A stretch of DNA of 64,000 nucleotides from an uncultured Candidatus Binatia bacterium (GCA_965200965.1 OZ241744.1:2848001-2912000); one strand, 5' to 3'; shown: positions 2,329 through 31,427, counted from the stretch's first letter. Notes: a model not told the origin generated them from the letters alone. Translations and numbers: made by a program.

Positions 2329-2505
2329 ACTACTTCCTCCTTTGCTGTCTGACAGACATGGTTAGTAGCTCTTCCTTAGCACCAAATGGCCGGCGCGGCA
2401 ATGAGAGGCGGCCCGCACTTGAAGAAAAGGTTTAGCGCAAGTGAAACTGGCGGAGGACGCCCGCCACTTCGGGCACCACTTCGGGGTGTGCTGGCCCAAG
2501 GCCCG

Positions 2506-3087
2506 TCAGGCTTCCACCAGGGCGTCCAGCCGTCGGCGATTGTTACCGATGTCTTCCTCCAGGCTGCGGACGCTGCGCTCAAAGGGCCGCAGCATGGTCC
2601 GCCGGTCCCACAGGGCAAAGCCGAGAATGGCCGCGACCAGGGTACTGAAGGCGGCCAGCAGGGCCAGGGTGAGGTGGAACTGCCGGGCAAACTGCCCGGT
2701 CATCTCTTCCCGCAACTGCTGCATCTGTTGGCCGATGTCGGTGCGGAGTTGCTCGTTCTGCCGGTTCATATCTTCCCGGAGTTGCTCGTTCTGCCGGTTC
2801 ATATCTTCCCGGAGTTGCTGCATATCCGCACGGAGTTGCTCGTTCTGCCGGTTCATATCTTCCCGGAGTTGCTGCATATCCGCGCGGAGTTGCTCGTTCT
2901 GCCGGTTCATATCTTCCCGGAGTTGCTGCATATCCGCACGGAGTCCGCCCTGCCCCTCTTCAAGCCGTGCCAGCCGCTCGGCGATCTCCCGGTCAGGCAA
3001 GGCCGGCGTGGCCTCCACCGCCCCGGCCGGGTGAGGCAGGAGCAGCCCGGTCAGGAGGACGAGCCAGGCGACACGCAGCTTGCTCAT
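2506..3087 (-). CDS. signal peptide + coiled-coil repeat + TM protein, copy 3; C-terminally truncated by TTG>TGA
   Basis: LRADMQQLREDMNRQNEQ x3 plus an 11-aa partial unit, then a TM helix; paralog of 18770-19273; decayed tail continues to about 2432. Confidence 0.8.
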   Translation of the reverse strand: MSKLRVAWLVLLTGLLLPHPAGAVEATPALPDREIAERLARLEEGQGGLRADMQQLREDMNRQNEQLRADMQQLREDMNRQNEQLRADMQQLREDMNRQNEQLREDMNRQNEQLRTDIGQQMQQLREEMTGQFARQFHLTLALLAAFSTLVAAILGFALWDRRTMLRPFERSVRSLEEDIGNNRRRLDALVEA

Positions 3088-3093
3088 GGGGCT

Positions 3094-3122
3094 ATTCAAG
3101 GCCGGGCCAGCGGGAATGTCAA
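3094..3122 (-). promoter_or_regulatory. sigma70-like promoter, probably leaderless, of the coiled-coil gene
   Basis: TTGACA-17 nt-TTGAAT-6 nt-ATG with no SD; same at 12950-12978 and 19280-19308. Confidence 0.5.
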
Positions 3123-3164
3123 GCTGCGGGCAGAGCCTTGAGCGGGCGGGGCCGGCCAGCCCCG

Positions 3165-6100
3165 TTACTCAAGGTTCGTAATCACAAAGTTCTGGGAGGA
3201 TTGCTGCCAGTCCAGGGTGACGGTCTCGCCGGCCCGCGGAAAGTCGGCCACCACCGCTTGGCCGCTGGCCCCGCGGACGAACTCCTCGCCTAAGGTCGTC
3301 ACGATGAAGGTCGCCCGGCTGAACTCCACCCCATCGGCCAAGGCCCGGATGGTATGTTCGCCGTCACCGATCAGGTTCCAGTTGAACAGCAGCCCAAAGC
3401 CGTTGTTGCCGTCGTTGCCGCACGCCTCAGCCGTATCGGCCCGGCCCGTGCCAGAGGCCGCCGCCAGCCGGTGGATGGCGTTGATCTCAAGCTCGACCCT
3501 CCCGGCCTCACACACCCAGCCCGAGATCACGCTGATACCACTCTGGAAGGAGCCGCCGGCCGGGTTTTCCAGGACGCCGTTCTGCCCGGTCGGCGGCGAG
3601 ACAGCCACGGCGGCCGAGAGCGGGGCCAGCCTGAAGCTCTGGCTACCCTCTTGCCACACCAGCCGGACCTGCTCGCCCGGGGATGGAAAGTCGGGCACAC
3701 GGGTCTCGCCACTGGCCCCCCTGATGAACTCCTCGCCTAAGGTCGTCACGGTGAAGGTGGCCCGGTCAAACTCGACCCCGTCGGCCAAGGCCCGGATGGT
3801 ATGTTCGCCGTCACCGATCAGGTTCCAGTTGAACAGCAGCCCAAAGCCGTTGTTGCCGTCGTTGCCGCACGCCTCAGCCGTATCGGCCCGGCCGGTACCA
3901 GCGGCGGCTTCCAGGATATGCGTGCCGTCCACCTCTAAGGTGATCGCCCCCCTGGCGCACGTCCAGCCCGAGATCAGCCCAATGCCGCTCTGGGAGGAAT
4001 CCGGCTCGGGGTTCTCCAGGACCCCGACCAAGACGGTGACGGTGAAGGTGGCCCGGTCAAACTCGACCCCGTCGGCCAAGGCCCGGATGGTATGTTGGCC
4101 AGCACCGATCTCGTCCCAGTCAACCTGCAACGCAAAACCCACATCGGCCTGGCCCCCGCAGTTTCCGGCCGCATCGGCCCGGCTGGTGCGAGCGGCTGTT
4201 CCGATAGACATGCCGTCCACCTCCAAGGTGATCACCCCCTGGCTGCACGTCCAGCCCGAGATCCGCCCGGTGCCACCGTGCGAGGAACCCTGACCGGGGT
4301 TCTCCAGGACCCCGACCCCGTCCAAAGACTGGGGGGGAGGGGGAGTACCGCCCCCGCCACCGCCCCCGCGGCCGGTGTTATCTGGGGGGGTCTCCGGGGG
4401 AGTTTCCACCTGGGGGGGGGTCTCCGGCCGGGGAGGGTCTGGAGGGTCTGGGGGGGTCTCCGGCCGGGGTGGGACTTCGGTGAAGGACGGGAACCCGAAG
4501 ATATTGGCGCAGAGTTGACCGCTGGAGTGCTCTGAGGACAGGACGCGCCAAGTGGTTCCGGCCCGCCCGACGATCCGGGGGGCGGGGGCGTTACTCAGGT
4601 CGCCCAGCAGGGGCAAACACACCCGCACGGCTTGGCTAGGATTGAGGGGGACTACATTCCCCGCCGCATTCCGGAAAAGGATGTTGGCGAAGACGGGGAG
4701 CGTCCCGAAATCCAGCGGGGGGGTCGGACTGGCCACCACGGAGAAGGGGCGCGCGTTCGCGTGGCCCGGCGACAAGGCGGAAAAATACTCGACATCGGAG
4801 GTGAGGCCGGTGCCCGCCTCGGAGAGTGTGGCGGGCTGGTGTTTGTGAGCGGTGAAGCTGGCGGGCCAGTGATAGAGAGCCCACGCCGCCGGCGGGCGTT
4901 GGCGTTGAGCGGCCCGGTATGCCAGGCGGGTGAGGGTGTTATGGGCTTCCCCCGGGATAATGTTTCGGATGTTGAAGAGGGTGTGCTCGAGCCGCCCGCT
5001 CACATCAAACACGCTTCGGCCTGCTTGGCTGCCATTGATGCCATACTCGGAGGCATAGAGATCCAGCGTGCTGCTGCCGATGACCGTGTTCCAGGACCCG
5101 TCGACCGTGACGGTGTTACTCCCCCCGCTGCCATCAAGCCCCATCCTGATCCCAAAGCCTGCTCTGGTGATGTAATTGCGTGACAGCGTGGCGGCCACCT
5201 GACTGCGAGTCCCGGCACTGGTGGTGCTGGTGATATCAATCCCGGTGCCTGCGCCGGTGATGCGGTTGGCCGACAGCGTGGTGGCCAGGGTGCTTGTCGC
5301 CGTGTTGCGGAGAGAAGTCCGAAGGTACACGCCGGTCGCGCTGGTGGTGATCGTATTGTCGGCCACGATGAGGTCCACGCTACTCGTCGCCGTGCTGCTG
5401 AGGGTCTTGTGCAGGTACACGCCGGTCGCGTGGCTGCCGGGCGTCTGCGAGATATCATTCTCGCGGATGGTTACGGCGGCGCAGCCGGGGCCGCTGTCCA
5501 ACTCAATGGCGCGGGGCGTGGAAGTGGCTGTGGAAGAGGCGACCAGGACATTATCGGAGAGGGTGACCCGGGCAGTGAGCGGGCAGTTCGGGGAGGATGC
5601 GACGGCGATCCCCGCACCGGCGAAATTGACGATATCGAACCCCTGCACGGTGGCGGTGGGGGAGGAGATGTGCAGCACGCTACGCTCGGCAAGGGGGCGC
5701 GCTGAATCAGTGGGAAGCTGTGACCCATCAAGCGTCATATCGACAGGCCGCCCGGCTGGGTCCTGGGCGAGGAGCCGGGTGTTGCCAGCGAGCGGCAGCG
5801 GGCTGGTGGGTGTGATGGTGCCGCCGCTGAGAGTCGGGTCGAAGATGATCGCCGTTGGGGTCGAGGTGGCGTTGGCCAAGTTCAACAGATAGGGGAGGGA
5901 CCCCGGCGTAGCGGCATCATCGGTGAGGGTGGTGACGGTGGAGGTGGCCATGAACGGGGAGGAGGTGGCCGTAGACGGGGGGGGGCTGGGGGGCTGGCGC
6001 AGGCTGAAATCAGCGCAGATTTGACTGCCCGCCCGCTCCGAGGACAGGGCCCGCCACGACGCGCCGGCCCGCCCGACGATCCGGGGGGCGGGGGCGTCAC

Positions 6101-9100
6101 TCAGGTCGCCCAGCAGGGGCAAACACACCCGCACGGCTTGGCTAGGATCGAGGGGGACTACATTCCCCGCCGCATTCCGGAAAAGGATGTTGGCGAAGAC
6201 GGGGAGCGTCCCGAAATCCAGCGGGGGGGTCGGACTGGCCACCACGGAGAAGGGGCGCGCGTCCGCGTGGCCCGGCGACAAGGCGGAAAAATACTCGACA
6301 TCGGAGGTGAGGCCGGTGCCCGCCTCGGAGAGCGTGGCGGGCTGGTGTTTGTGAGCGGTGAAGCTGGCGGGCCAGTGATAGAGAGCCCACGCCGCCGGCG
6401 GGCGTTGGCGTTGAGCGGCCCGGTATGCCTGGCGGGTGAGGGCGTTATGGGCTTCCCCCGGGATAATGTTTCGGATGTTGAAAAGGGTATGCTCGAGCCG
6501 CCCGCTCACATCAAACCCGCTTCGGCCCCCTTGACTGCCATTGACGCCATACTCGGAGGCATAGAGATCCAGCGTGCTGCTGCCGATGACCGTGTTCCAG
6601 GACCCGTCGACCGTGACGGTGTTACTCCCCCCGCTGCCATCAAGCCCCATCCTGATCCCAAAGCCTGCTCTGGTGATGTAATTGCGTGACAGCGTGGCGG
6701 CCACCTGACTGCGAGTCCCGGCACTGGTGGTGCTGGTGATATCAATCCCGGTGCCTGCGCCGGTGATGCGGTTGGCCGACAGCGTGGTGGCCAGGGTGCT
6801 TGTCGCCGTGTTGCGGAGAGAAGTCCGAAGGTACACGCCGGTCGCGCTGGTGGTGATCGTATTGTCGGCCACGATGAGGTCCACGCTACTCGTCGCCGTG
6901 CTGCTGAGGGTCTTGTGCAGGTACACGCCGGTCGCGTGGCTGCCGGGCGTCTGCGAGATATCATTCTCGCGGATGGTTACGGCGGCGCAGCCGGGGCCGC
7001 TGTCCAACTCAATGGCGCGGGGCGTGGAAGTGGCTGTGGAAGAGGCGACCAGGACATTATCGGAGAGGGTGACCCGGGCAGTGAGCGGGCAGTTCGGGGA
7101 GGATGCGACGGCGATCCCCGCACCGGCGAAATTGACGATATCGAACCCCTGCACGGTGGCGGTGGGGGAGGAGATGTGCAGCACGCTACGCTCGGCAAGG
7201 GGGCGCGCTGAATCAGTGGGAAGCTGTGACCCATCAAGCGTCATATCGACAGGCCGCCCGGCTGGGTCCTGGGCGAGGAGCCGGGTGTTGCCAGCGAGCG
7301 GCAGCGGGCTGGTGGGTGTGATGGTGCCGCCGCTGAGAGTCGGGTCGAAGATGATCGCCGTTGGGGTCGAGGTGGCGTTGGCCAAGTTCAACAGATAGGG
7401 GAGGGACCCCGGCGTAGCGGCATCATCGGTGAGGGTGGTGACGGTGGAGGTGGCCATGAACGGGGAGGAGGTGGCCGTAGACGGGGGGGGGCTGGGGGGC
7501 TGGCGCAGGCTGAAATCAGCGCAGATTTGACTGCCCGCCCGCTCCGAGGACAGGGCCCGCCACGACGCGCCGGCCCGCCCGACGATCCGGGGGGCGGGGG
7601 CGTCACTCAGGTCGCCCAGCAGGGGCAAACACACCCGCACGGCTTGGCTAGGATCGAGGGGGACTACATTCCCCGCCGCATTCCGGAAAAGGATGTTGGC
7701 GAAGACGGGGAGCGTCCCGAAATCCAGCGGGGGGGTCGGACTGGCCACCACGGAGAAGGGGCGCGCGTCCGCGTGGCCCGGCGACAAGGCGGAAAAATAC
7801 TCGACATCGGAGGTGAGGCCGGTGCCCGCCTCGGAGAGCGTGGCGGGCTGGTGTTTGTGAGCGGTGAAGCTGGCGGGCCAGTGATAGAGAGCCCACGCCG
7901 CCGGCGGGCGTTGGCGTTGAGCGGCCCGGTATGCCTGGCGGGTGAGGGCGTTATGGGCTTCCCCCGGGATAATGTTTCGGATGTTGAAAAGGGTATGCTC
8001 GAGCCGCCCGCTCACATCAAACCCGCTTCGGCCCCCTTGACTGCCATTGACGCCATACTCGGAGGCATAGAGATCCAGCGTGCTGCTGCCGATGACCGTG
8101 TTCCAGGACCCGTCGACCGTGACGGTGTTACTCCCCCCGCTGCCATCAAGCCCCATCCTGATCCCAAAGCCTGCTCTGGTGATGTAATTGCGTGACAGCG
8201 TGGCGGCCACCTGACTGCGAGTCCCGGCACTGGTGGTGCTGGTGATATCAATCCCGGTGCCTGCGCCGGTGATGCGGTTGGCCGACAGCGTGGTGGCCAG
8301 GGTGCTTGTCGCCGTGTTGCGGAGAGAAGTCCGAAGGTACACGCCGGTCGCGCTGGTGGTGATCGTATTGTCGGCCACGATGAGGTCCACGCTACTCGTC
8401 GCCGTGCTGCTGAGGGTCTTGTGCAGGTACACGCCGGTCGCGTGGCTGCCGGGCGTCTGCGAGATATCATTCTCGCGGATGGTTACGGCGGCGCAGCCGG
8501 GGCCGCTGTCCAACTCAATGGCGCGGGGCGTGGAAGTGGCTGTGGAAGAGGCGACCAGGACATTATCGGAGAGGGTGACCCGGGCAGTGAGCGGGCAGTT
8601 CGGGGAGGATGCGACGGCGATCCCCGCACCGGCGAAATTGACGATATCGAACCCCTGCACGGTGGCGGTGGGGGAGGAGATGTGCAGCACGCTACGCTCG
8701 GCAAGGGGGCGCGCTGAATCAGTGGGAAGCTGTGACCCATCAAGCGTCATATCGACAGGCCGCCCGGCTGGGTCCTGGGCGAGGAGCCGGGTGTTGCCAG
8801 CGAGCGGCAGCGGGCTGGTGGGTGTGATGGTGCCGCCGCTGAGAGTCGGGTCGAAGATGATCGCCGTTGGGGTCGAGGTGGCGTTGGCCAAGTTCAACAG
8901 ATAGGGGAGGGACCCCGGCGTAGCGGCATCATCGGTGAGGGTGGTGACGGTGGAGGTGGCCATGAACGGGGAGGAGGTGGCCGTAGACGGGGGGGGGCTG
9001 GGGGGCTGGCGCAGGCTGAAATCAGCGCAGATTTGACTGCCCGCCCGCTCCGAGGACAGGGCCCGCCACGACGCGCCGGCCCGCCAGGCGATCCGCGGGG

Positions 9101-12100
9101 CGTCGGCGTCGGCCAGGTCGGCCGGCAGAGGCAGACACACCCGCACGGGATGGGTAACCCCGAGGGTGACCACTTCACCGGTAAACCGGCTCTGATCAGC
9201 GAGAATGAGTTTGACGGCGACAGGCATGGTCCCGAAGTCCGGCGGGGGGGTCGGACTGGCCACCACGGAAAAGGCGTGCTGGTTAGCGAAGATCTGGTTC
9301 GGCCCGAAGGTGATCTGATATTCCTGGCTAAGGGTTCCGCTGCGCCTGAGGAACGTGGCGGCCTGGTATCGGTGGACGGTGAAGCTGGCGGGGAACCGAT
9401 AGCGAGTCCAAGGGGGTGGAAAGCGCGGGGGGCGGACAGCGGCCCGGTATGCGGAACGGGTGAAGGGGCCGGGGGACTCCCCTACTGCAATGTTTCTGCT
9501 GTTGAAGAGGGTGTGCTCGAGCCGCCCGCTCACATCAAACCCGCTTCGGCCTGCCTGGCTGCCATTGACGCCATACTCGGAGGCATAGAGATCCAGCGTG
9601 CTGCTGCCGATGACCACATTGCCGGTCCCGTTGACCGTGACGGTGTTGCTCCCCTCGCTGCCGTCAAGATGAATCCTCATCCCAAAGTCGGCTCTGGTGA
9701 TGTAATTGCGTGACAGCGTGGCGGCCACCTGACTGCGAGTCCCGGCACTGGTGGTGCTGGTGATATCAATCCCGGTGCCTGCGCCGGTGATGCGGTTGGC
9801 CGACAGCGTGGTGGCCAGGGTGCTCGTCGCCGTGTCGCTGAGAGAGGTCCGAAGGTACACGCCGGTCGCGCTGGTGGTGATCGTATTGTCGGCCACGATG
9901 AGGTCCACGCTACTCGTCGCCGTGTTGCTGAGGGTCTTGTGCAGGTACACGCCGGTCGCGCGTCTGTCCGGCGTCTGTGAGATATCATTCTCGCGGATGG
10001 TTACGGCGGTGCAGCCGGGGCCGCTGTCCAACTCAATCGCGCGGGCCGTGGAAGTCGCTGTGGAAGAGGCAGAGGCGACCAGGACATTATCGGCGATCGT
10101 GACCCGGGCATTGACCGGGCAGTTCGGGGAGGATGCGACGGCGATCCCCACCTCGTCGAAGACGATATTGAATCCCGAAACGGTGGCGGTGGGGGAGGAG
10201 ATGGTCAGCACCCTACGCTCGGCAAGGGGGCGCTCTGAATCAACGGGATACGGAATGAGGGTGATATCGACGGCCATCCCGTCTGCATCCTGGGCGAGGA
10301 GCCGGGTGTTGCCAGCGAGCGGCAGTGGGCTGTTGGGCTGGATGGTGCCGCCGTCGAGGGCCGGGTCAAAGATGATCGCCGTTGGTGTGGATGTAGCGTT
10401 GGCCTGGTTCAACAGATAGGGGAGGGACCCCAGCGTATTGGCATTATCGGTGAGGGTGGTGACGGTGGAGGTGGCCATGGGGGGGGGTATGCTGAAGAGC
10501 GGGAACCCGCGGAAATCGGCGCAGATTTCACTGCCTGACCGAGCCGAGGGCAGGGTGCGCCAGACGGTTCCGTCCAGCCAGGCGAGCCGTGGGTTGGAAG
10601 CCGACAGGTCGGCCGGCACGGGCAAACACACCCGCACGGGGTGGGTCAGCCCGAGGGTGGCCATCCGCCAGTCTGCATCCCGGGGAATGAGTCTGGCGAC
10701 GACGGGGACGGTCCCGAAGTCCGTTGAGGTGGCCTGCCCGGACACCACGGACACGGCCCGCTCAACCGCCGCGCTCGGGGTAAACTGGACCGGGTCGGCC
10801 AGGACATAGGTTTCCCCAATGATGGTGACGGTTACGATCTCGGTCTCGCCGTACCGGGTCCGGCGTCCGCCTGTGATACCCGCGGGGGGGAGCCGGTCTA
10901 CCTGGTATCGATGGACGGTGAAGCTGTTGGCCCTCTCCCTCACGCCTGAAAGGTTTGCGGCGTTGAAGATGGTGTCCTCGATCTGCCCGTTTATCTCGTA
11001 ACCCCCCTCTGAGGCGAAGATATCCGTCCTGCTGCTGCCGATGACCGTGTTGCTGGAACCGCTGACCGTGGCTCCGCCGCTTCCCCCGCTGCCGCTAAAC
11101 GCAATCCTGATCCCATTGTTTGCTCCGGTGATGCGATTGAGCGACAGATTGGTGTTTGTCTCAGCGCTGGACCCATTATTGGTGGTGTCCAGCGAAATCC
11201 CATTGCTTGCTCCGGTGATGTGATTGGCCGTCAGCCGAGCGTCCACCCTGTTGCTACTGCTGTCGGTGATATTATCGATGATCCTGATCCCGTTTGTTGC
11301 TCTGGTGATGCGATTGACCTCCAGATCGACATCCACCCTGTTGCTACTCCCGCCGCTGAGGATGTTGGTCAACAAAATCGCCTGGCCCGGTGTGGTGATC
11401 GTATTGTCGGACACGAAGGCGGCCACGCTGCTACTCGCCGTGCTCTGGAGGATATGACCAATGTAAATGCCGGTCGAGTTGGTGGTGATCGTATTGTCGG
11501 ACACGAAGAGGTCCACGCTACTCGTCGCCATGTTGCGGAGGATCTTTTGCAGGTAAATGCCGTTCGCCAGGCCTCCCGGCGTCTGCGAGATATCATTCGC
11601 GCGGATGGTCACGGCGGTGCAGCCGGCACCATCGCCCACCTGAATCGCGTTGGCCGAGGAAGTGGCGACCAGGACATTATCGGAGATCGTGACCCGGGCA
11701 TTGGCCGGGCAGTTCGGGGAGGCTGAGACGAAGATCCCCGCGCCAGCGAAATTGACGATGTCGAACCCCTGCACGGTGGCGGTGGGGGAGGAGATGGTCA
11801 GCACACTACGCTCGGCAATGGGATGCGCTGAATCAGTGGGAAGCTGTGACCCATCGAGGGTCATATCAATGGACATCCCGGCTGCATCCTGGGCAAGGAG
11901 CCGGATGTTGGCAGCGAGCGGCAGCGGGCTGGCGGGCGTGAGGGTGCCGCCACTGAGGGCCGGGTTGAAGATGATCGCCGTTGGGGTCGAGGTGGCGTTG
12001 GCCCGGTTCAGCAGATAGCGGAGGGACCCCGGCGTACTGGCCTCATCGGTGAGGCTGGTGACGGTGGAGGTGGCTGTTTGTGCCCTGAGCGCGGGGGCGA

Positions 12101-12223
12101 GGGCCAGCAGCAGGCCGCACAGGAGCAGCAGGCCGACAAGTCGAGCGGAACGCATAGTCATCGTCACTATCTGTGATCTTGGGGGGGGGGGGGGGGGTAG
12201 GATTCCTGGCTGTTTGCAATCAT
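3165..12223 (-). CDS. giant secreted right-handed beta-helix repeat protein (5 modules of about 500 aa plus 3 C-terminal LENP..SG Ig-like domains); SD-led ATG out of frame across poly-C
   Basis: 3026-aa ORF; signal peptide RSARLVGLLLLCGLLLALAPALRA; CSLREA-like TVTSLTD..GSLRY; ITxNxI PbH1-like repeats; Pro/Gly linker. Confidence 0.85.
4558..9085. repeat. three near-identical tandem 1506-bp (502-aa) intragenic repeats
   Basis: identical shadow ORFs at 5221/6727/8233 (period 1506); only a few SNPs in the 3'-most copy. Confidence 0.95.
12181..12197. repeat. G17 homopolymer (C17 on coding strand), candidate phase-variation tract
   Basis: lies between SD-ATG (12223) and the signal-peptide coding sequence. 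Confidence 0.85.
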
Positions 12224-12253
12224 GGCTGCCTCCCTGAACCGGCATTGCAGGGT

Positions 12254-12282
12254 ATTTCAGTCTCCTGGTGTTTGTGTGTCAA
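12254..12282 (-). promoter_or_regulatory. sigma70 promoter of the 3026-aa gene with a degenerate -10
   Basis: TTGACA-17-TGAAAT; the paralogous promoter has TAAAAT. Confidence 0.6.
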
Positions 12283-12394
12283 AGCGGCCTTCCCTGATGA
12301 GAGGCGGCCCGCACTTGAAGAAAGCGCAAGTGAAACTGGCGGAGGACGCTCGCCACTTCGGGCACCACTTCGGGGTGTGCTGGCCCAAGGCCCG

Positions 12395-12943
12395 TCAGGC
12401 TTCCACCAGGGCGTCCAGCCGCCGGCGATTGTTGCCGATATCTTCCTCCAGGCTGCGGACGCTGCGCTCAAAGGGCCGCAGCATGGTCCGCCGGTCCCAC
12501 AGGGCAAAGCCGAGAATGGCCGCGACCAGGGTACTGAAGGCGGCCAGCAGGGCCAGGGTGAGGTGGAACTGCCGGGCAAACTGCCCGGTCATCTCTTCCC
12601 GCAACTGCTGCATCTGTTGGCCGATGTCGGTGCGGAGTTGCTCGTTCTGCCGGTTCATATCTTCCCGGAGTTGCTGCATATCCGCGCGGAGTTGCTCGTT
12701 CTGCCGGTTCATATCTTCCCGGAGTTGCTGCATATCCGCGCGGAGTTGCTCGTTCTGCCGGTTCATATCTTCCCGGAGTTGCTGCATATCCGCACGGAGT
12801 CCGCCCTGCCCCTCTTCAAGCCGCGCCAGCCGCTCGGCGATCTCCCGGTCAGGCAAGGCCGGCGTGGCCTCCACCGCCCCGGCCGGGCCGGGCAGGAACA
12901 GCCCGGTCAGGAGGACGAGCCAGGCGACACGCAGCTTGCTCAT
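12395..12943 (-). CDS. coiled-coil repeat TM protein, copy 2; truncated by the same premature stop as copy 3
   Basis: three 18-aa units; ends LDALVEA*. Confidence 0.8.
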   Translation of the reverse strand: MSKLRVAWLVLLTGLFLPGPAGAVEATPALPDREIAERLARLEEGQGGLRADMQQLREDMNRQNEQLRADMQQLREDMNRQNEQLRADMQQLREDMNRQNEQLRTDIGQQMQQLREEMTGQFARQFHLTLALLAAFSTLVAAILGFALWDRRTMLRPFERSVRSLEEDIGNNRRRLDALVEA

Positions 12944-13020
12944 GGGGCTATTCAAGGCCGGGCCAGCGGGAATGTCAAGCTGCGGGCAGAGCCTTGAGCG
13001 GGCGGGGCCGGCCAGCCCCG

Positions 13021-16000
13021 TTACTCAAGGTTCGTAATCACAAAGTTCTGGGAGGATTGCTGCCAGTCCAGGGTGACGGTCTCGCCGGCCCGCGGAAAGT
13101 CGGCCACCACCGCTTGGCCGCTGGCCCCGCGGACGAACTCCTCGCCTAAGGTCGTCACGATGAAGGTCGCCCGGCTGAACTCCACCCCATCGGCCAAGGC
13201 CCGGATGGTATGTTCGCCGTCACCGATCAGGTTCCAGTTGAACAGCAGCCCAAAGCCGTTGTTGCCGTCGTTGCCGCACGCCTCAGCCGTATCGGCCCGG
13301 CCCGTGCCAGAGGCCGCCGCCAGCCGGTGGATGGCGTTGATCTCAAGCTCGACCCTCCCGGCCTCACACACCCAGCCCGAGATCACGCTGATACCACTCT
13401 GGAAGGAGCCGCCGGCCGGGTTTTCCAGGACGCCGTTCTGCCCGGTCGGCGGCGAGACAGCCACGGCGGCCGAGAGCGGGGCCAGCCTGAAGCTCTGGCT
13501 ACCCTCTTGCCACACCAGCCGGACCTGCTCGCCCGGGGATGGAAAGTCGGCCACAAAGGTCTCGCCGCTGGCCCCGCGGATGAACTCCTCGCCTAAGGTC
13601 GTCACGGTGAAGATCGCCCGGTCAAACTCGACCCCGTCGGCCAAGGCCCGGATGGTATGTTCGCCGTCACCGATCAGGTTCCAGTTGAACAGCAGCCCAA
13701 AGCCGTTGTTGCCGTCGTTGCCGCACGCCTCAGCCGTATCGGCCCGGCCGGTACCAGCGGCGGCTTCCAGGATATGCGTGCCGTCCACCTCTAAGGTGAT
13801 CGCCCCCCTGGCGCACGTCCAGCCCGAGATCAGATTAATGCCGCTCTGAGAGGAACCCGGCTCGGGGTTCTCCAGGAACCCGACCAAAGGCTGGGGGGGA
13901 GGAAGGGCAGCACCGCCCCCGCCACCGCCCCCACCGCCGGGGTTACCTGGGGGAGTTTCCACTTGGGGGGGAGTCTCTGGTCGGGGGGGGACTTCGGTGA
14001 AGGCCGGGAACCCGAAGATATTGGCGCAGAGTTGACCGCCGGAGTGCTCTGAGGACAGGACGCGCCAAGTGGTTCCGGCCCGCCCGACGATCCGGGGGGC
14101 GGGGGCGTCGGCCAAGTCGCCCAGCAGGGGCAAACACACCCGCACGGCTTGGCTAGGATCGAGGGGGACTACATTCCCCGCCGCATTCCGGAAAAGGATG
14201 TTGGCGAAGACGGGGAGCGTCCCGAAATCCAGCGGGGGGGTCGGACTGGCCACCACGGAGAAGGGGCGCGCGTCCGCGTGGCCCGGCGACAAGGCGGAAA
14301 AATACTCGACATCGGAGGTGAGGCCGGTGCCCGCCTCGGAGAGCGTGGCGGGCTGGTGTTTGTGAGCGGTGAAGCTGGCGGGCCAGTGATAGAGAGCCCA
14401 CGCCACCGGCGGGCGTTGGCGTTGAGCGGCCCGGTATGCCTGGCGGGTGAGGGCGTTATGGGCTTCCCCCGGGATAATGTTTCGGATGTTGAAGAGGGTG
14501 TGCTCGAGCCGCCCGCTCACATCAAACCCGCTTCGGCCCGCTTGGCTGCCATTGACGCCATACTCGGAGGCATAGAGATCCAGCGTGCTGCTGCCGATGA
14601 CCGTGTTCCAGGACCCGCTGACCGTGACGGTGTTACTCCCCCCGCTGCCGTCAAGCCTCATCTGGATCCCAAAGCCTGCTCTGGTGATGTAATTGCGTGA
14701 CAGCGTGGCGGCCACCTGACTGCGAGTCCCGGCACTGGTGGTGCTGGTGATATCAATCCCGGTGCCTGCGCCGGTGATGCGGTTGGCCGACAGCGTGGTG
14801 GCCAGGGTGCTCCTCGCCGTGTTGCTGAGAGAGGTCCGAAGGTACACCCCGCTCGCGCTGGTGGTGATCGTATTGTCGGCCACGATGAGGTCCACGTTGC
14901 TCGTCGCCGTGTTGCTGAGGGTCTTGTGCAGGTACACGCCGGTCGCGCGGCGGCTGCCGGGCGTCTGTGAGATAGCATTCTCGCGGATGGTTACGGCGGC
15001 GCAGCCGGGGCCGCTGTCCAACTCAATGGCGCGGGGCGTGGAAGTGGCTGTGGAAGAGGCGACCAGGACATTATCGGAGAGGGTGACCCGGGCAGTGAGC
15101 GGGCAGGTCGGGGAGGCGGCGACGGCGATCCCCACCCCGGCGAAATTGACGATATCGAACCCCCGCACGGTGGCGGTGGGGGAGGAGATGCGCAGCACGA
15201 CGGGGAGTTGTGACCCATTGAGGGTTATATCGACAGACCGCCCGGCTGTATCCTGGGCGAAGAGCCAGATATCGCTAGCGAGCGGCAGCAGGCTGGTGGG
15301 CGTGATGGTGCCGCCGCTGAGGGTCGGGTCGAAGATGATCGTCGTTGGGGTAGAGGTGGCGTTGGCCTGGTTCAACAGATAGGGGAGGGACCCCGGCGTA
15401 TTGGCATCATCCGTGAGGGTGGTGACGATGGAGAGGTGGCGGATGCGGAAATCGGCGCAGATTTGATTGCCGGACCGAGCCGAGGGCAGGGTGCGCCAGA
15501 CGGGGCCGTCCCGCCAGGCGATCCGCGGGGCGTCGGCGTCGGCCAGGTCGGCCGGCAGAGGCAGACACACCCGCACATGATGGGTAATCCCGAGGATGAT
15601 CCTATCTGTATCAGCGGGAATGAGCCTGACGGCGACAGGCATGGTCCCGAAGTCCGGCGGGGCGGTCGGACTGGCCACCACGGAAAAGGCGCGCTGGTTA
15701 TTGGAGATCTGGTTCGGCGTGAAGGTCTGCTGATATTCCTGGGAAAGAGTGGTTGTGCGGGCCCCGAGGAACGTGGCGGCCTGGTAGCGGTGGGCGGTGA
15801 AGCTGGCGGGCCAGTGATAGAGAGCCCAGGCAGCCGGCGGGCGTTGGCGTTGAGCGGCCCGGTATGCCTGGCGGGTGAAGGGGGTATGCGCCTCCCCCGG
15901 GATAATGTTTCGGGTGTTGAAGAGGGTGTTCTCGAGCCGCCCGCTCACATCAAACCCGCTTCGGCCCGCTTGGCTGCCATTGACGCCATACTCGGAGACA

Positions 16001-18610
16001 TAGAGATCCAGCGTGCTGCTGCCGATGACCGTGTTCCAGGACCCGTCGACCGTGACGGTGTTGCTCCCCCCGCTGCCGTCAAGCCTCATCTGGATCCCGA
16101 AGTTGGCTCCGGTGATGTAATTGCGCGACAGCGTGGCGGCCACCTGACTGCTATTCCCGGAACTGGTGGTGCTGGTGATATCAATCCCGGTGCCTGCGCC
16201 GGTGATGCGATTGGCCGACAGCGTGGTGGCCAGGGTGCTCGTCGCCGTGTCGCTGAGAGAGGTCCGAAGGTACACCCCGGTCGCGCTGGTGGTGATCGTA
16301 TTGTCGGCCACGATGAGGTCCACGCTACTCGTCGCCGTGCTGCTGAGGGTCTTGTGCAGGTACACGCCGGTCGCGTGGCTGCCGGGCGTCTGCGAGATAT
16401 CATTCTCGCGGATGGTCACGCCGGCGCAGCCGGGGCCGCTGTCCAACTCGATCGCGCGGGCTGTGGAAGAGGCGACCAGGACATTATCGGAGAGGGTGAC
16501 CCGGGCAGTGACCGGGCAGTTCGGGGAGGCGGCGACGGCGATCCCCGCGCCGGCGAAATTGACGATATCGAACCCCCGCACGGTGGCGGTGGGGGAGGAG
16601 ATGCGCAGCACACTACCGTCAGCGGGGAGTTGTGACCCATCGAGGGTCATATCGACAGACCGCCCGGCTACGTCCTGGGCGCGGAGCTGGGTGTTGCCAG
16701 CGAGCGGCAGCGGGCTGGTGGGGGTGATGGTGCCGCCGCTGAGGGTCGGGTCAAAGAGGATCTCCGTTGGGGTAGAGGTGGCGTTGGCCTGATTCAACAG
16801 ATAGGGGAGGGACCCCAGCGTATTGGCCTCATCGGTGAGGGTGGTGACGATGTAGGTGATAAGGAGCCTCTGAAAGCTCAACTCGGCGCAGATTTCATCG
16901 CCTGACCGAGCCGAGGGCAGGGTGCGCCAGACGGTTCCGTCCCGCCAGGCGATCCGTGGGGCGGACGCCGACAGGTCGGCCGGCACGGGCAAACACACCC
17001 GCACGGGGTGGAGCAGCCCGCGGGTGGCCACCCGCCCGTCCGCAGTCTGGGGCAGCAGGCCAGCGACAACAGGCATGGTCCCGAAGTCCGTTGAGGTGGC
17101 CTGACCGGACACCACGGACACGGCCCGCTCAACCGCTTCGCGCGGGGTAAACTGGGCCGGGTCGGCCAGATAGGTTTCCTCAATGGTGGTGACGGTCACG
17201 ATCTCGGTCGTGCCGTCCTGGTTCTGGTGCCCGCCGGTGATCCCCCCGGGGGGGAGCCGGTCTACTTGGTAGCGGTGGACGGTGAAGCTGTTGGCCCTCG
17301 TCCCCACTGCCAGGCGTATGGTGTTGAAGATGGTGCGCTCGAGACGCCCGTTGATCTGGTATCTGTTCTCGGAGGCGGAGATATCTGTGTCGCTGCTGCC
17401 GAGGACCACATTGCCGGTCCCGTTGACCGTGGCGCTGTTGCTCGTCCCGTTGCCGCTGAGATCAATCTCAAGGCCCTTCCGCGCACCGGTGATGTAATTG
17501 CCCGACAGCGTGGCGTCCGTGCTCAAACTCGTCCCGCTGCCGAAGCTGGTGCTGGCAATCCTGATCCCCTTCTGCGTGCCGGTGAGGTGATTGCCCGACA
17601 GCGTGACCGTCGCGCTGTCAACAGCCCCGCGGCCAACACTGCCGAGGACCGCAATGCCGTCCTGCGGGCCGGTGATGCGATTGGCCGACAGTTGGGCAAC
17701 CAGGCGATTGCTCCCCCCACTGCCGATGGTGGAGACAAACGCAATCCCCTCCCGTGTGCCGGTGATGCGATTGGCCGACAGCCGGGCGGTCACCCTGGAG
17801 CTGTTATCCCCGGTGGTGGTGGAGCGACCAATGGAAATGCCGACAGCGGTGGTGATCGTATTGTCGGCCACGAGAGCGTCCACGCTGCTACTCGCCATAG
17901 TGTGGGAGGTGCCGGCATCGGTGCTGCGAATGGAAATGCCGGTCGCGCGGCTGCCCGGTGTCTGTGAGATATTATTCGCGCGGATGGTCACCGCGGTGCA
18001 CTGGTTGGTGACGCTGGTCACCTCAATGGCGTGGGGCGTGGAAGTGGCTGTGGAAGAGGCGACCAGGACATTATCGGAGAGGGTGACCCGGGCAGTGAGC
18101 GGGCAGTTCGGGGAGGATGCGACGGCGATCCCCGCGCCGGCGAAATTGACGATATCGAATCCCGAAACGGTGGCGGTGGGGGAGGAGATGTGCAGCACGC
18201 TACGCTCGGCAAGAGGACGCCCTGAATCAGTGGGGAGCTGTGACCCATCGAGCGTCATATCGACGGCCATCCCGGCTGCATCCTGGGCGAGGAGCCGGAT
18301 GTTGGCAGCGAGCGGCAGCGGGCTGGCGGGCGTGAGGGTGCCGCCACTGAGGGCCGAGTTGAAGATGATCGCCGTTGGGGTAGAGGTGGCGTTGGCCTGG
18401 TTCAACAGATAGCGGAGGGACCCCGGCGTACTGGCCTCATCGGTGAGGCTGGTGACGGTGGAGGTGGCTGTTTGTGCCCTGACCGCGGGGGCGAGGGCCA
18501 GCAGCAGGCCGCACAGGAGCAGCAGGCCGACAAGTTGAGCGTAACGCATAGTCATCACCATCTGTGATCTTGGGGGGGGGGGGGTAGGATTCCTGACTGT
18601 TTGCAATCAT
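13021..18610 (-). CDS. giant secreted beta-helix repeat protein (3 modules plus 2 C-terminal Ig-like domains); SD-led ATG out of frame across poly-C
   Basis: 1861-aa ORF paralogous to the 3026-aa gene; last ~530 bp appear identical to the 3165 end. Confidence 0.85.
18572..18584. repeat. G13 homopolymer (C13 on coding strand)
   Basis: same position relative to the start as G17 at 12181. Confidence 0.85.
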
Positions 18611-18640
18611 GGCTGTCTCCCTGAACCGGCATTGCAGGGT

Positions 18641-18669
18641 ATTTTAGCCTCCTGGTGTTTGTGTGTCAA
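18641..18669 (-). promoter_or_regulatory. near-consensus sigma70 promoter of the 1861-aa gene
   Basis: TTGACA-17 nt-TAAAAT, followed by GGGAGA SD and ATG at 18610. Confidence 0.75.
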
Positions 18670-18713
18670 AGTGGGCCTGCATCCGCTCCCACCGGACCCA
18701 CGGGCCCGGAGCA

Positions 18714-18760
18714 GCGTCAAACGCCGTGTTGGGGATGCCGCAATAGCTCGAACCGTTCTC
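18714..18760 (-). pseudogene. 47-bp diverged remnant of the 5' region of the LLM gene
   Basis: 42/47 match to 2222-2268 (ENGSSYCGIPNTAFDA vs ENGPSYFGIPNTAFDA). Confidence 0.85.
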
Positions 18761-18769
18761 ACGAAGGGC

Positions 18770-19273
18770 TTAGCGCAAGTGAAACTGGCGGAGGACGCCC
18801 GCCACTTCGGGGTCGTGCTGGCCCAAGGCCCGCAAGGCTTCCACCAGGGCGTCCAGCCGCCGGCGATTGTTGCCGATGTCTTCCTCCAGGCTGCGGACGC
18901 TGCGCTCAACGGGCCGCAGCATGGTCCGCCGGTCCCACAGGGCAAAGCCGAGAATGGCCGCGACCAGGGTACTGAAGGCGGCCAGCAGGGCCAGGGTGAG
19001 GTGGAACTGCCGGGCAAACTGCCCGGTCATCTCTTCCCGCAACTGCTGCATCTGTTGGCCGATGTCGGTGCGGAGTTGCTCGTTCTGCCGGTTCAGGTCT
19101 TCCCGGAGTTGCTTTAGATCGGTCCGGAGCCCGGTCTGCCCCTCTTCAAGCCGGGCCAGCCGCTCGACGATCTCCCGGTCGGTCAAGGCCGGCGCGGCTT
19201 CCACCGCCCCGGCCGGGCCGGGCAGGAACAGCCCGGTCAGGAGGACGAGCCAGGCGACACGCAGCTTGCTCAT
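18770..19273 (-). CDS. coiled-coil TM protein, copy 1 (intact, single repeat unit)
   Basis: signal peptide, coiled coil, TM helix, full tail ALRALGQHDPEVAGVLRQFHLR. Confidence 0.85.
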   Translation of the reverse strand: MSKLRVAWLVLLTGLFLPGPAGAVEAAPALTDREIVERLARLEEGQTGLRTDLKQLREDLNRQNEQLRTDIGQQMQQLREEMTGQFARQFHLTLALLAAFSTLVAAILGFALWDRRTMLRPVERSVRSLEEDIGNNRRRLDALVEALRALGQHDPEVAGVLRQFHLR

Positions 19274-19350
19274 GGGGCTATTCAAGGCCGGGCCAGCGGG
19301 AATGTCAAGCTGCGGGCAGAGCCTTGAGCGGGCGGGGCCGGCCAGCCCCG

Positions 19351-22041
19351 TTACTCAAGGTTCGTAATCACAAAGTTCTGGAAGGATTGCTGCCAGACCA
19401 GGGTGACGGTCTCGCCGGTGCTCGGAAAGTCGGCCACTACCGCCCGCCCGCTGGCCTCGCGGACGAACTCCTCATCCAAGGTCGTCACGGTGAAGGTCGC
19501 CCGGTCAAACTCGACCCCGTCGGCCAAGGCCCGGATGGTATGTTGGCCGTCACCGAGCAGGTTCCAGTTGAAGAGCAGCCCGAAGCCCACATCGCCCCGG
19601 CCCTCGCAGACTCCGGCGGCGGCCACATCGCCCCGGGCCGTGCCAGAGGCGGCTTCCAGGAGATGCGTGCCGTCCACTTCCAACTCAATCGCTTCCCCGG
19701 TACACACCCAGCCCGAGATCACGCTGATACCGCTCTGGAAGGAGCCGCCGGCCGGGTTTTCCAGGACGCCGAGCGGGCCGGCAGTGGTGGAGGAGGCCGC
19801 CGGCGGGGGGGCTGTGGTCGAGAGCGGGGCCAGCATGAAATTCTGGACAGCCTGTTCCCACACCAGCCGCGTCTGCTCGCCCGGAGACGGAAAGTCGGCC
19901 ACCACCACCTCGCCGCTGGCCCCGCGGACGAACTCCTCACCCAAGGTCGTCACGGTGAAGATCGCCCGGTCAAACTCCACCCCATCGGCCAAGGCCCGCA
20001 TGGTATGTTGGCCGTCACCGAGCAGGTTCCAGTTGAACAGCAGCCCAAAGCCCACATCACCCCGGCCCTCGCAGACTCCGGCGGCGGCCACATCGCCCCG
20101 GGCCGTGCCAGAGGCGGCTTCCAAGCGATGCGTGGTGCCGTCCACCTCCACCTCCACCTCAATCAATTCCCCGGTACACACCCAGCCCGAGATCACGCCG
20201 ATGCCACTGAAGAAGGCCGGCTGGGGGTACTCCAGGACCCCGACCACGCCTCCTGCTACGGTGCCGGTGGGGGGTGGAGCCACTGTGCCGCCCCCGCCAT
20301 TGCCCCCGAGGCCCGGGTTCTCTGGGGGAGTCTCCGGCCGGGGCTGGGAGGGCGTGAAGGGCGTGAAGGACGGGAACCCGGAAAGATCGGCGCAGATCTG
20401 GACGCCTGACCGAGCCGAGGGCAGGGTGCGCCAGACGGTTCCGTCCCGCCCGGCGATCCGTGGGTCGGGGGCGTCGCTCAGGTCGGCCGGCAGGGGCAAA
20501 CACACCCGAAAGGATTGGGTGAGGGTGACTACAGTCCCTGCCGCATTCCGGAAAAGGATGTTGGCGAAGACGGGGAGGGTCCCGAAGTCCGGCGGGGGGG
20601 TCGGACTGGACACCACGGAGAAGGTGCGCGCGTTCGCGTGGACCTGCGGCAAGGCGGAAACATATTCTTCATCGGAGGTGATTCCGGTGCCTGCCTGTGA
20701 GAGCGTGGCGGTCTGGTGTCTGTGGGCGGTGAAGCTGGCGGGCCACTGATAGGAAGGCCAAGTGGCCGACGGTTGGAGTTGAGCGGCCTGGTATGCGCTG
20801 AGGATGAGGCGCTGGGCCACCTCCACCGCATTCACATCCGGTCTGATGTTCTGGGTGTTGAAGATGGTGTTCCCGAGACGCCCGCTCACATCAAACCCGC
20901 TTCGGCCCGCTTGGCTGCCATTGACGCCATACTCTGAGGCGAAGAGATCCATCGTGCTGCTGCCGATGACCGTGTTCCAGGACCCGTTGACCCTGGCGAT
21001 GTTGCTCCCCCCGCTGCCGTCAAGATTAATCCTGATCCCAAAGCTTGCTCCGGTGATGTAATTGCGCGACAGCGTGGCGGTCACCCGACTGTCAGCGCTG
21101 GCGGCCTGGGTGGTGCTGTCTATATTAATCCCGGTGTGTGCTCCGGTGATGCGGTTGCCCGACAGCGTGGCAGTCGTTCTAGCTGTACTCGTCGCCATGC
21201 GGTGAGCAAGGTAAATGCCGTTCGCTCCGGTGGTGATCGTATTGTCGGACACGATGAGGTCCAGGGTGCTCGTCGCCATGCTGCTGAGGGTCTTATGCAG
21301 GTAAATGCCGTTCGCCTGGCTTCCCGGTGTCTGCGAGATAGTATTCTCGCTGATGGTCACGCCGGCGCAGCCGGGGCCACTGTCCAACTCAATCGCGTGG
21401 GCCGTGGAAGTGGCGACCAGGACATTATCGGAGATTGTGACCCGGGCATTGGCCGGGCAGTTCGGGGAGGCTGAGACGTAGATCCCCGCGCCGGCGAAAT
21501 TGACGATATCGAATCCCTGCACGGTGGCGGTGGTGGAAGAGATGCTCAGCACATTACGCCCGGCAAGGGAGATCTCTGTATTAGTGGGGAACTGTGACCC
21601 AGCGAGCGTTATATCGACAGACCTCCCGGCTGCATCCTGGGCGAGGAGCCGTATGTTGCCAGAGAGCAGCAGCGGGATGTTGGGCGTGATGGTGCCGCCG
21701 CTGAGGGTTGAGTCGAAGATGATTGTTGTCGGGGTAGATGTGGCGTTGGCCTGGTTCAACAGATAGCGGAGGGTCCCCGGCGTAGTGAGACCATCCGTGA
21801 GGCTGATGACGGTGGAGGTGGCCGTTTGCGCCCTGACCGCGGGGGCGAGGGCCAACAGCAGGCTGCACAGGAGCAGCAGGCCGACAAGTCGGGCGTAACG
21901 CCTATCCATCATCATCTGTGATCTTGGGGGGGGGGCGATCTCCCGGTCGGTCAAGGCCGGCGCGGCCTCCACCGCTCCGCTCGGGCGGGGCAGGAGCAGC
22001 CCGGTCAGGATGATACGCCAAGCGATACGCAGCTTGCTCAT
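19351..22041 (-). CDS. secreted beta-helix protein (1 module plus 2 Ig-like domains), N-terminally fused through C10 to the first 36 aa of a coiled-coil gene copy
   Basis: MSKLRIAW...LTDREIA|PPPRSQ; G10 at 21926-21935 keeps the frame. Confidence 0.85.
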   Translation of the reverse strand: MSKLRIAWRIILTGLLLPRPSGAVEAAPALTDREIAPPPRSQMMMDRRYARLVGLLLLCSLLLALAPAVRAQTATSTVISLTDGLTTPGTLRYLLNQANATSTPTTIIFDSTLSGGTITPNIPLLLSGNIRLLAQDAAGRSVDITLAGSQFPTNTEISLAGRNVLSISSTTATVQGFDIVNFAGAGIYVSASPNCPANARVTISDNVLVATSTAHAIELDSGPGCAGVTISENTISQTPGSQANGIYLHKTLSSMATSTLDLIVSDNTITTGANGIYLAHRMATSTARTTATLSGNRITGAHTGINIDSTTQAASADSRVTATLSRNYITGASFGIRINLDGSGGSNIARVNGSWNTVIGSSTMDLFASEYGVNGSQAGRSGFDVSGRLGNTIFNTQNIRPDVNAVEVAQRLILSAYQAAQLQPSATWPSYQWPASFTAHRHQTATLSQAGTGITSDEEYVSALPQVHANARTFSVVSSPTPPPDFGTLPVFANILFRNAAGTVVTLTQSFRVCLPLPADLSDAPDPRIAGRDGTVWRTLPSARSGVQICADLSGFPSFTPFTPSQPRPETPPENPGLGGNGGGGTVAPPPTGTVAGGVVGVLEYPQPAFFSGIGVISGWVCTGELIEVEVEVDGTTHRLEAASGTARGDVAAAGVCEGRGDVGFGLLFNWNLLGDGQHTMRALADGVEFDRAIFTVTTLGEEFVRGASGEVVVADFPSPGEQTRLVWEQAVQNFMLAPLSTTAPPPAASSTTAGPLGVLENPAGGSFQSGISVISGWVCTGEAIELEVDGTHLLEAASGTARGDVAAAGVCEGRGDVGFGLLFNWNLLGDGQHTIRALADGVEFDRATFTVTTLDEEFVREASGRAVVADFPSTGETVTLVWQQSFQNFVITNLE

Positions 22042-22195
22042 GGGACTATCAAGGCCGGGCCGGCGGGAATGTCAAGCTGTGGGTAAGAACGTCTCCCCTC
22101 TGCGGTCCTGCTGAACGGCATCTTCCCCCCGCTCTTCTTTTTTGTCAAGCTGTCTGCCAGGTGGAGGGCCTTGCCGGAACAGGGAGGGACAGACC

Positions 22196-31276: not shown

Positions 31277-31427
31277 CCCTCCAGTGTAGACGGGAGGGGT
31301 GGGAAACGGAACGGCCGCGCGGATAAATGGGCAGCTGGAGACGCGCCTGTTGGCCTTGCTCGGGGCATTGTCCCTGACTATGATTGGTCAAAACTCGTTC
31401 GAGACCCGGCGGATACAGGGGAACGAA

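Follow-up and report, generated by a model that had tools for sequence, protein, structure and literature searches.

A locally amplified array of giant beta-helix proteins with likely poly-C switches and a putative surface-anchoring domain in an uncultured Candidatus Binatia bacterium

Introduction

SLH and CWB2 repeats are small conserved modules that occur in tandem copies at either end of diverse exported proteins. A module with a similar distribution, which differs from both in fold and has no sequence match to them, is present in three giant beta-helix proteins encoded by a 64,000-nucleotide stretch of DNA (hereafter the window, meaning the whole stretch) from an uncultured Candidatus Binatia bacterium (GCA_965200965.1 OZ241744.1:2848001-2912000). 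We call this module the LENP domain, the giant genes G1, G2 and G3, and the small coiled-coil gene that follows each of them CC. G000 denotes the genome that holds the window, G007 a sister genome, and X1, X2, X3, X5 and X8 public sequencing runs. Our favoured reading, which we hold to be moderately probable as a whole, is that the locus is a locally amplified array of three giant proteins that are predicted to be exported by the Sec route, held at the surface by a pair of LENP domains and switched by poly-C tracts, with CC as a passenger.

Each part of the array can be compared with described systems. The Ig-like fold of the LENP domain is shared with the type IX secretion system's (T9SS) C-terminal domain, although LENP is not strictly C-terminal. 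Residues 1-98 superpose on the Ig domain 6tn6, and Big_7 (PF17957) is the nearest named set, but an extra three-strand tail and a nearly obligatory pairing distinguish LENP from these bacterial Ig/E-set domains. The modules of the giants are like the pneumococcal adhesin PfbA (3zpp), the DHS dehydratase 8wm1, GH28 polygalacturonases and pertactin in having a predicted parallel beta-helix (Z 25-28), and the combination of a Sec signal and a beta-helix passenger is also that of a classical autotransporter. In the giants, however, the module is repeated one to five times and each copy carries a C-terminal beta-sandwich. Unlike PfbA- and pertactin-type beta-helix proteins, the giants have neither a barrel nor an LPXTG motif, and a catalytic site was not identified in an alignment of 16 modules.

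The Neisseria genes pilC, pglA and lgtA are contingency loci with genic tracts of G9-21 (PMC5953494). The likeness to our locus lies in a long early G/C homopolymer, in the involvement of surface-protein and glycosylation genes, and in a tract length that differs between strains. In Neisseria the reading frame decides between ON and OFF, which the sequence suggests here as well, and G007 adds one promoter-spacer case. The differences are that the host is an uncultured, likely sponge-associated member of the Binatia rather than a vertebrate pathogen, that the tract of the giants lies in the signal-peptide n-region of multi-module proteins, and that it may act as a switch with three levels because of the in-frame starts downstream. 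A further comparison is with the eukaryotic-like proteins of sponge symbionts (PMC13747020): LRR, cadherin, FN3, Calx-beta, SRCR and VWA domains occur among the passengers of LENP, whereas the giants in the window carry beta-helix modules instead. Literature searches for phase variation in sponge symbionts or sponge Binatia, and for the LENP domain and Binatia secretion, found no description, although neither covered supplements.

A tandem array of three giant genes

Read along the minus strand, on which all features lie unless stated otherwise, the array consists of G1 (896 aa), CC1, G2 (1861 aa), CC2, G3 (3026 aa) and CC3. It is followed by a gene for an LLM-class flavin monooxygenase (LLM; 1033-2328, PF00296), which is the downstream flank of the insertion site, and the upstream flank is a divergent SRAP gene on the plus strand (22142-22870, PF02586). 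The giants carry 1, 3 and 5 modules and 2, 2 and 3 LENP motifs, respectively. A sequence-only reading of the window had given this order of giants, CC genes and LLM, these giant sizes and this strand, and all of the open reading frames (ORFs) were found where it had placed them. Its module and domain counts were likewise verified, the extra LENP copy of G3 proving to be a partial core of ~95 aa (~4030-4310) that lacks the beta-tail.

G1 (19351-22041) opens with a 5' fragment of CC, which leads through a C10 tract to a signal peptide, one module of ~500 aa (20317-21828), a Pro/Gly linker and a LENP pair (19354-20244). The fragment (21936-22083) comprises the CC upstream element and the first 35 CC codons, supplies the in-frame ATG of G1 and has 89% DNA identity to 19168-19316 (CC1), which confirms the fusion that had been claimed. 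The long frame of G2 (13021-18606) gives 1861 aa from a TTG, with modules that start near 18474, 16851 and 15429 and a LENP pair at 13024-13887. That of G3 (3165-12245; 3026 aa) holds five modules, the partial LENP core and a LENP pair at 3168-4028. A Pfam scan of the three giants at E<=0.01 matched zero families, in agreement with the earlier statement that they have no autotransporter barrel, RTX or sortase motif, and NCBIfam scores were sub-threshold only.

The array is an ordinary tandem amplification. Directly after the CC1 stop lies a 5' relic of the LLM gene (18704-18769, codons ~18-39; tblastn 73%, E 8e-8; DNA 89% over 47 nt), which marks a duplicated unit of the form giant-CC-LLM'. 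G2/CC2 and G3/CC3 have 1255 bp in common at 98.4%. Over 1506 bp, modules 3 and 4 of G3 do not differ at all, module 5 departs from them at 37 bases, and all three show 91% protein identity to module 3 of G2; G3 is a G2-type gene whose last module has been triplicated. In G007, SRAP is followed by two giants that no CC separates and then by one frameshifted CC and LLM, and in all six other congeners checked SRAP stands directly beside LLM with neither CC nor a giant gene. Both this species and its sister G007 have one giant-plus-CC insert between SRAP and LLM, and the giant-CC-LLM' unit was duplicated before the last module was triplicated in G3. At the empty site, the LLM gene is tandemly duplicated in three congeners (G005, L154; G006, L155; G002, L158), so this is a duplication-prone site. 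Contig depth over the shared module is ~4x single-copy in X1 and X3, which would agree with four copies, but depth is not copy number and was not used for counting. Contig joints in which whole modules are missing were disregarded, since they probably reflect cross-mapping from paralogues.

Homologues of the array proteins are labelled Desulfurellaceae or Candidatus Binatia. Of 14 listed sequencing runs, those with labels are sponge metagenomes, and a sponge-associated member of the Binatia is for that reason the likely host. The listing includes no RNA run, which speaks neither for nor against expression.

For the module, an AlphaFold2 model made from a 16-row alignment (pLDDT 80.9, pTM 0.83) predicts an N-cap, a right-handed parallel beta-helix (residues ~1-370 in the G1 module) and a C-terminal beta-sandwich with an RVCLP motif. 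Foldseek matched the model to right-handed parallel beta-helices (best E 5e-9), and VIA returned 8wm1 (Z 27.7), the polygalacturonase 1bhe (25.9) and the adhesin PfbA (25.8), with an rmsd of ~3 A over ~295 residues and 11-17% identity. The Asn ladder of the pectin-lyase-like superfamily is present in the alignment and the model. Structure prediction thus bears out the beta-helix modules of the sequence-only reading, and the prediction for each module is a beta-helix of the pectin-lyase-like kind, in which the loops vary, with a small beta-sandwich after it. Residues 326-360 are variable and modelled with low confidence, and after them comes a beta-rich domain in which a pair of Cys is invariant. 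The nearest named Atlas family to the RVCLP beta-sandwich is ZU5 (score 0.84, a lead only), and its sequence has no Pfam or PDB sequence match.

The modelled fold gives no verdict on function, with enzymes and adhesins nearly tied among the matches. The modules are rich in Thr, Ala and Ser, and one invariant Asp is the sole invariant acidic residue across the 16 aligned, closely related modules. Because of this composition, the repetition and the single invariant Asp, we favour a binding stalk rather than an enzyme. The module family appears narrow, since only 6 proteins matched it in a search of longer proteins in which 7991 candidates were scored.

Poly-C tracts before the signal-peptide cores

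Each giant has a run of C just before the core of its signal peptide, with a length of 10 in G1 (21926-21935), 13 in G2 (18572-18584) and 17 in G3 (12181-12197). The sequence-only reading had overlooked these tracts. At length 10 the G1 tract is in frame with the CC ATG. For G2 and G3, the real starts are probably the ATGs at 18610 and 12223, which are preceded by Shine-Dalgarno (SD)-like sequences (GGGAG within 18608-18621, and GGGAGG), and in each giant the tract falls between the likely start codon and the signal-peptide core. A sigma-70-type promoter match upstream of G2 (TTGACA-17-TAAAAT, 11/12 positions, 18641-18669) is the only one in 11900-22300; shuffles give 1.6, so the count is not significant and the promoter is supported by its position instead. 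The G3 start region (12221-12282) has a promoter-like TTGACA-17-TGAAAT with a weaker -10.

Both ATGs align with the position at which the tract-free orthologues in G007 are called to start, and with the tract lengths of the assembly neither is in frame with its long ORF. Read from them, tract lengths that are multiples of 3 give the full protein, as a length of 18 would for G3. Another LENP gene has a near-identical homologue, P0020, whose in-frame call begins at the equivalent upstream ATG, which in G000 is out of frame. The tracts are then long homopolymers in a 5' coding region, the mark of a contingency locus, an assignment that depends on the inferred start codon.

Tract length differs among public contigs. 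The G2 tract is 13 long in X1, 15 in X2 and X3, and 11 in X5 and X8; the three lengths are represented in three studies (X1, X2 and X5), in contigs that each extend beyond the tract by more than 31 letters at either end. For G1 the length is 10 in X1, 8 in X2 and X3, and 9 in X5, where a 44-nt deletion restores the frame. The G3-type tract is 17 in X1 and probably 18, 19 and 20 within X3, where the assignment to G3 is itself tentative. Slipped-strand phase variation of the giants is likely, although the alternative start codons described below weigh on this reading.

The tracts are also concentrated in genes that encode LENP. Three LENP genes unrelated to the giants carry C15, G18 and G16 at the same position, and a C or G run of 10-18 just before the signal core is found in 6/9 LENP ORFs of at least 700 aa. 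LENP ORFs make up 1.7% of G000, yet they hold 6 of its 10 tracts of at least 13 (0.17 expected; binomial P 4e-9) and 9 of its 32 tracts of at least 10 (P 2e-9). In G007, 5 of 11 tracts of at least 13 are at LENP genes, including a C30 in a paralogue of the giants. At G007:C1 ~869717 (L145:3700-3740), a G16 makes up the greater part of the spacer that separates TTGACA from TATAAT, both perfect, the spacer being 21 nt as assembled and the downstream gene encoding 701 aa with an N-terminal LENP pair. This arrangement is a candidate promoter-spacing switch.

Two other causes were considered. Assembly error is unlikely to have produced the tracts, because contigs of X1, which may be the source sample, match the lengths 17 and 13 ungapped and such tracts number 0-1 in six other relatives with a low contig count. 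Loss of mismatch repair was rejected on MutS_V matches in uninterrupted frames in 5/5 genomes, in which MutS appears intact (MutL was not checked).

Another alternative is that the runs are not switches at all but are mutable and neutral, or fine-tuning, because translation begins at an ATG or GTG just before the hydrophobic core. We consider this improbable, but a number of observations count in its favour and against switching. In-frame starts follow the tract in all three giants (ATG or GTG just downstream in G2 and G3), G2 also has an in-frame TTG 4 nt after the SD-preceded ATG, and in one frame the stop of the short peptide overlaps the downstream start; the tract could therefore lie in a 5' untranslated region, or could tune expression in a graded manner rather than switch it. 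The G1 homologue P0037 is called from a downstream Met, and the array genes' direct orthologues in G007 lack a tract. In addition, the tract lengths come from assembled contigs of unrecorded library type and not from raw reads, the 18, 19 and 20 variants of X3 could be homopolymer stutter or a strain mixture, and X1 may be the source sample. The enrichment threshold is post hoc, G2 and G3 are not independent, and Pro-rich linkers inflate short C runs (38/367 runs of at least 7). Finally, none of the 12 long tracts of G004 lies in a LENP frame, and G002, G005, G006, G020, G024 and G133 have 0-1 long tracts, so the device is not general to LENP genes.

What speaks for slipped-strand switching in spite of these points is that the downstream starts have no evident SD, whereas the upstream ATG has both an SD and a promoter and coincides with the tract-free orthologue starts. 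Unrelated LENP genes, too, carry a run of C or G there, and in one case the run is located in a promoter spacer. Long poly-C/G runs are, moreover, generally under-represented in prokaryotic genes (PMC2831843).

Other tracts in these genomes lie in genes without LENP. Four PMT_2-type membrane glycosyltransferase paralogues of G000 (C1 285686, 1133714, 1137501 and 1164612; L171, L175, L176) share a mid-gene G12-15, at which three are frameshifted and one is in frame, and another G000 tract is in a sulfatase-domain gene. The long tracts of G004 include some in genes that resemble PMT_2-type glycosyltransferases. An orthologous G15/G23 tract stands at the 5' end of a TetR-family regulator gene, ~10 kb from a Tad-type secretin gene, in G000 (C1 2767067, L152) and G007 (C1 1175090, L146). 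A G20 run in G007 (L144:2321) directly precedes the ribosome-binding site of a gene that resembles minC.

The LENP pair

The predicted structure of the LENP pair (pLDDT 90.6, pTM 0.84) has two Ig-like domains. Residues 1-98 are Ig-like (best Z 11.6, rmsd 1.8, 85 aligned, to the Thermotoga mannanase Ig domain 6tn6), and no structural match covers the three-strand tail (residues ~99-137). Running the structure prediction that the sequence-only reading had proposed thus gave generic Ig matches only, with a Foldseek TM of ~0.2. A PDB sequence search found nothing better than E 0.11, and a Pfam scan placed 0/32 LENP members above cut-off for any family, including Big_7 (PF17957), SLH and CWB2. Big_7 is the nearest named set in the Atlas, with low recognition value, and one homologue, P0038, bears a precomputed PF17957 mark.

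The LENP profile finds 3669 representatives at E<=0.001. Among the best-scoring 150, a sample biased towards pairs, 147 have exactly two copies, and the pair is C-terminal in 105, N-terminal (right after the signal peptide) in 37, internal in 6 and the whole protein in 2. G000 has 35 LENP ORFs in all, many of them single-copy. The passengers include M4, S8 and M14 peptidases and LRR, cadherin, Calx-beta, SRCR, FN3, LDL-receptor B and VWA domains, in a scan that covered 36/37 of the N-terminal proteins. In 120 other genomes of the class, at E<=1e-25, LENP was present in 12/14 of family f1, 11/14 of family f8 and 0/92 from 17 other families. Within this genus a genome can have up to 108 matches. 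Because the domain is nearly always paired, stands at either terminus, accompanies unrelated passengers and is confined to 2/19 families sampled, the pair is likely a shared anchoring or targeting module and not a strict C-terminal signal. The proposal of an undescribed anchoring or secretion tag therefore holds in that no curated family covers the domain and many unrelated exported proteins carry it, but not in its restriction to the C-terminus, which the 37/150 N-terminal pairs contradict.

By inspection, the giants have a Sec-type signal with n, h and c regions and an AxA motif. G000 clusters GspD, GspF and a PilN-domain gene of a type II secretion system (T2SS) and also encodes a Tad-type secretin, which makes T2SS a plausible export route on genomic grounds. 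Other described systems fit poorly. A classical autotransporter (T5aSS) is rejected because the last 288 aa fold as two Ig-like domains and not as a 12-stranded beta-barrel, with no Pfam match. A two-partner secretion TpsA protein is rejected on the absence of a Pfam TPS match and on neighbours that are SRAP, CC and LLM, although TpsB elsewhere in the genome was not searched for. A type I secretion system (T1SS) RTX giant adhesin is at odds with the Sec-type signal and the lack of an RTX family match. Sortase or exosortase (PEP-CTERM) processing is at odds with a C-terminus formed by a beta-strand of the LENP tail. The T9SS C-terminal domain is excluded by the 37/150 N-terminal and 6 internal placements and by the lack of a family match, and membership in SLH or CWB2 by the lack of a profile match.

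We see only a low probability that the LENP pair is instead a folded recognition signal for T2SS, so that the giants would be released into the sponge matrix, possibly to bind or degrade glycans, and not be retained on the cell. Several facts fit such release and weigh against anchoring. A T2SS is present in G000, the LENP pair is rigid in the model and flexible in position, and its match to generic Ig domains has no bearing on anchoring. Many passengers are enzymes, among them secreted peptidases and a nuclease-like protein, which suits release as well as retention, and polygalacturonases and lyases are among the folds closest to the module. Release is opposed by the composition and single invariant acidic residue of the modules and by the absence of LENP from the 92 genomes outside the two families, in which T2SS presence was not tested. 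Multi-module stalks and contingency tracts, moreover, are features typically seen in antigens that stay bound to the cell.

Slightly less probable still is a role for the LENP pair in binding a host or matrix ligand, as a shared sponge extracellular-matrix docking domain and not an anchor in the bacterial envelope. The invariant polar and aromatic residues (R, D, N-W, F-P and W) and the conserved Cys pair would suit a binding site, the expansion within the genus is strong, and the holders of this DNA are sponge metagenomes. LENP is, however, also found in the second family, f8, and in congeners of undetermined habitat. A diverged N-terminal form, on a G000 gene pair that we presume to be imelysin-like and di-haem-type (C1 118937-122692), suggests a housekeeping role in the envelope.

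A diverged LENP-like domain is also N-terminal on a large beta-propeller protein (G000:C1 3234554-3237799), and these diverged forms are possibly ancestral. G006 (L034-L037) and G005 (L038-L040) contain long arrays of about a dozen large LENP-pair genes of up to ~2770 aa. These arrays feature unrelated passengers at the N-terminus and contain neither CC nor long tracts. G000 contains several LENP fragments and pseudogenes, and small LENP genes are broken at G10/C10 runs and Pro-rich linkers (C1 128800-130000 and 3089900-3091700).

The coiled-coil gene as a passenger

CC1 (18770-19270), the only intact copy in the array, encodes 166 aa with a predicted signal peptide, one coiled-coil unit, a predicted transmembrane helix, a WDRR motif and a C-terminal helix. 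In form, CC is likely a signal-peptide-bearing, single-pass membrane coiled coil. The repeat unit is 54 bp, of which CC2 (12395-12940) has 3 and CC3 (2506-3084) ~3.6. Both are truncated by an identical premature TGA and have frame-broken tails (to ~12320 in CC2), and no variant is listed at the TGA site in the 4 runs aligned there. CC has 396 homologues but no curated family; scores against CCDC90-like (17.7 bits, cut-off 33.5) and XhlA (19.4, cut-off 34.7) are generic coiled-coil scores. Close homologues carry 1-3 units. A conserved TTGAC element lies ~38 nt upstream of the CC1 ATG, and it is kept just upstream of the ATG in homologues (14 copies in 10/12 loci examined), for which reason CC looks like a self-contained cassette.

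CC is a passenger copied along in the duplicated unit. When 77 LENP-pair loci were taken with 3-kb flanks (73 were at least 5.4 kb long), the CC profile matched one, the G007 locus, where CC is frameshifted. This rarity, the nonsense mutation shared by CC2 and CC3, the LLM relic and the empty sites of congeners together support the passenger reading. In a search of 41 genomes, LENP was present in 25 and CC in 17, with LENP only in 10 of the 25 and CC only in 2 of the 17, and the co-occurrence check suggested by the sequence-only reading thus finds the two unlinked. Both outcomes that this reading had named as counting against a CC role, CC without giant genes and LENP proteins unlinked to it, were observed. 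No CC was found in a 76-kb stretch of G006 or a 60-kb stretch of G005 that are rich in large LENP genes. In G000, CC also occurs away from LENP genes, as single copies and as a 4-copy array. The latter (C1 2391270-2393645, L058) consists of four intact tandem CC genes, flanked by genes for fatty-acid synthesis and by amidohydrolase genes; coil length differs among the four, and every one has a TTGACA element of its own upstream.

The same reading had offered CC as a partner or ruler of the giants, or else as the duplicated landing site. Strict alternation, the rise of 1, 3 and ~3.6 units alongside 1, 3 and 5 modules, a coil that the predicted signal peptide and transmembrane helix would turn outward, and the presence of CC after the giants of G007 would suit a membrane protein that binds the neighbouring giant or its LENP pair with a matched coil length, but the verified trend comes from n=3 copies that are not independent, and no CC match lies near the G000 paralogues that contain the same module (1105, 1170 and 1231 aa). 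With the broken copies, the LENP-free array, the 1-3 units of homologues and the CC-free LENP genomes described above, genomics already largely refutes this very improbable idea. The landing-site version survives in so far as CC is a passenger in the duplicated unit, but CC as an ancestral resident of the site is ruled out by the 6/6 other congeners that have SRAP-LLM without it.

Other genes in the window

Elsewhere in the window, a plus-strand gene at 31299-32309 encodes a CAP12/Pycsar-type TIR domain protein (PF10137) with a perfect 75-bp repeat of 2.5 copies in its N-terminal half, and a low-GC plus-strand gene at 41978-45031 resembles type ISP restriction-modification genes, with N6 methylase, coupler and specificity domains. 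A minus-strand HNH-like ORF (26163-26729; PF13392, E 0.0017, below cut-off) overlaps the end of an LLM gene.

Implications

In the model that we favour, the signal peptide would be cleaved at AxA-QTATST and the giant would cross the outer membrane, probably through T2SS. The LENP pair would then bind an envelope component non-covalently, by analogy with SLH or CWB2 repeats, and the modules would form an adhesive stalk of variable length facing sponge tissue. Tract length would set the frame from the SD-preceded ATG: multiples of 3 should give the full G2 or G3 protein, the +1 frame a dead-end peptide of 57-60 aa, and the +2 frame a stop on top of the downstream start, which may allow coupled, partial expression.

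More broadly, and only tentatively, the LENP pair could serve as address tag in a so far undescribed system for surface display that only two Binatia families possess, and which would display dozens of enzymes, eukaryote-like domains and beta-helix adhesins. In this sponge-symbiont lineage its repertoire would be diversified by module number, gene duplication and homopolymer switches of the frameshift and promoter-spacer kinds, including those in PMT-type glycosyltransferases. If this is true, an address-tag system with a bank of switches would amount to antigenic variation of the kind found in pathogens, but in a symbiont of sponges.

The locus is of interest as a case in which an uncurated, lineage-restricted display module is joined to a likely phase-variable repertoire with allele evidence. 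One uncurated module common to thousands of proteins provides a testable handle on the means by which the many adhesin-like and eukaryote-like proteins of sponge symbionts are exported and displayed, and its HMM lists a candidate surface proteome for an uncultured group. If the tracts do switch the giants, then a symbiont of an early-branching animal uses a contingency strategy best known from vertebrate pathogens, which would point to selection by host phagocytes or phage.

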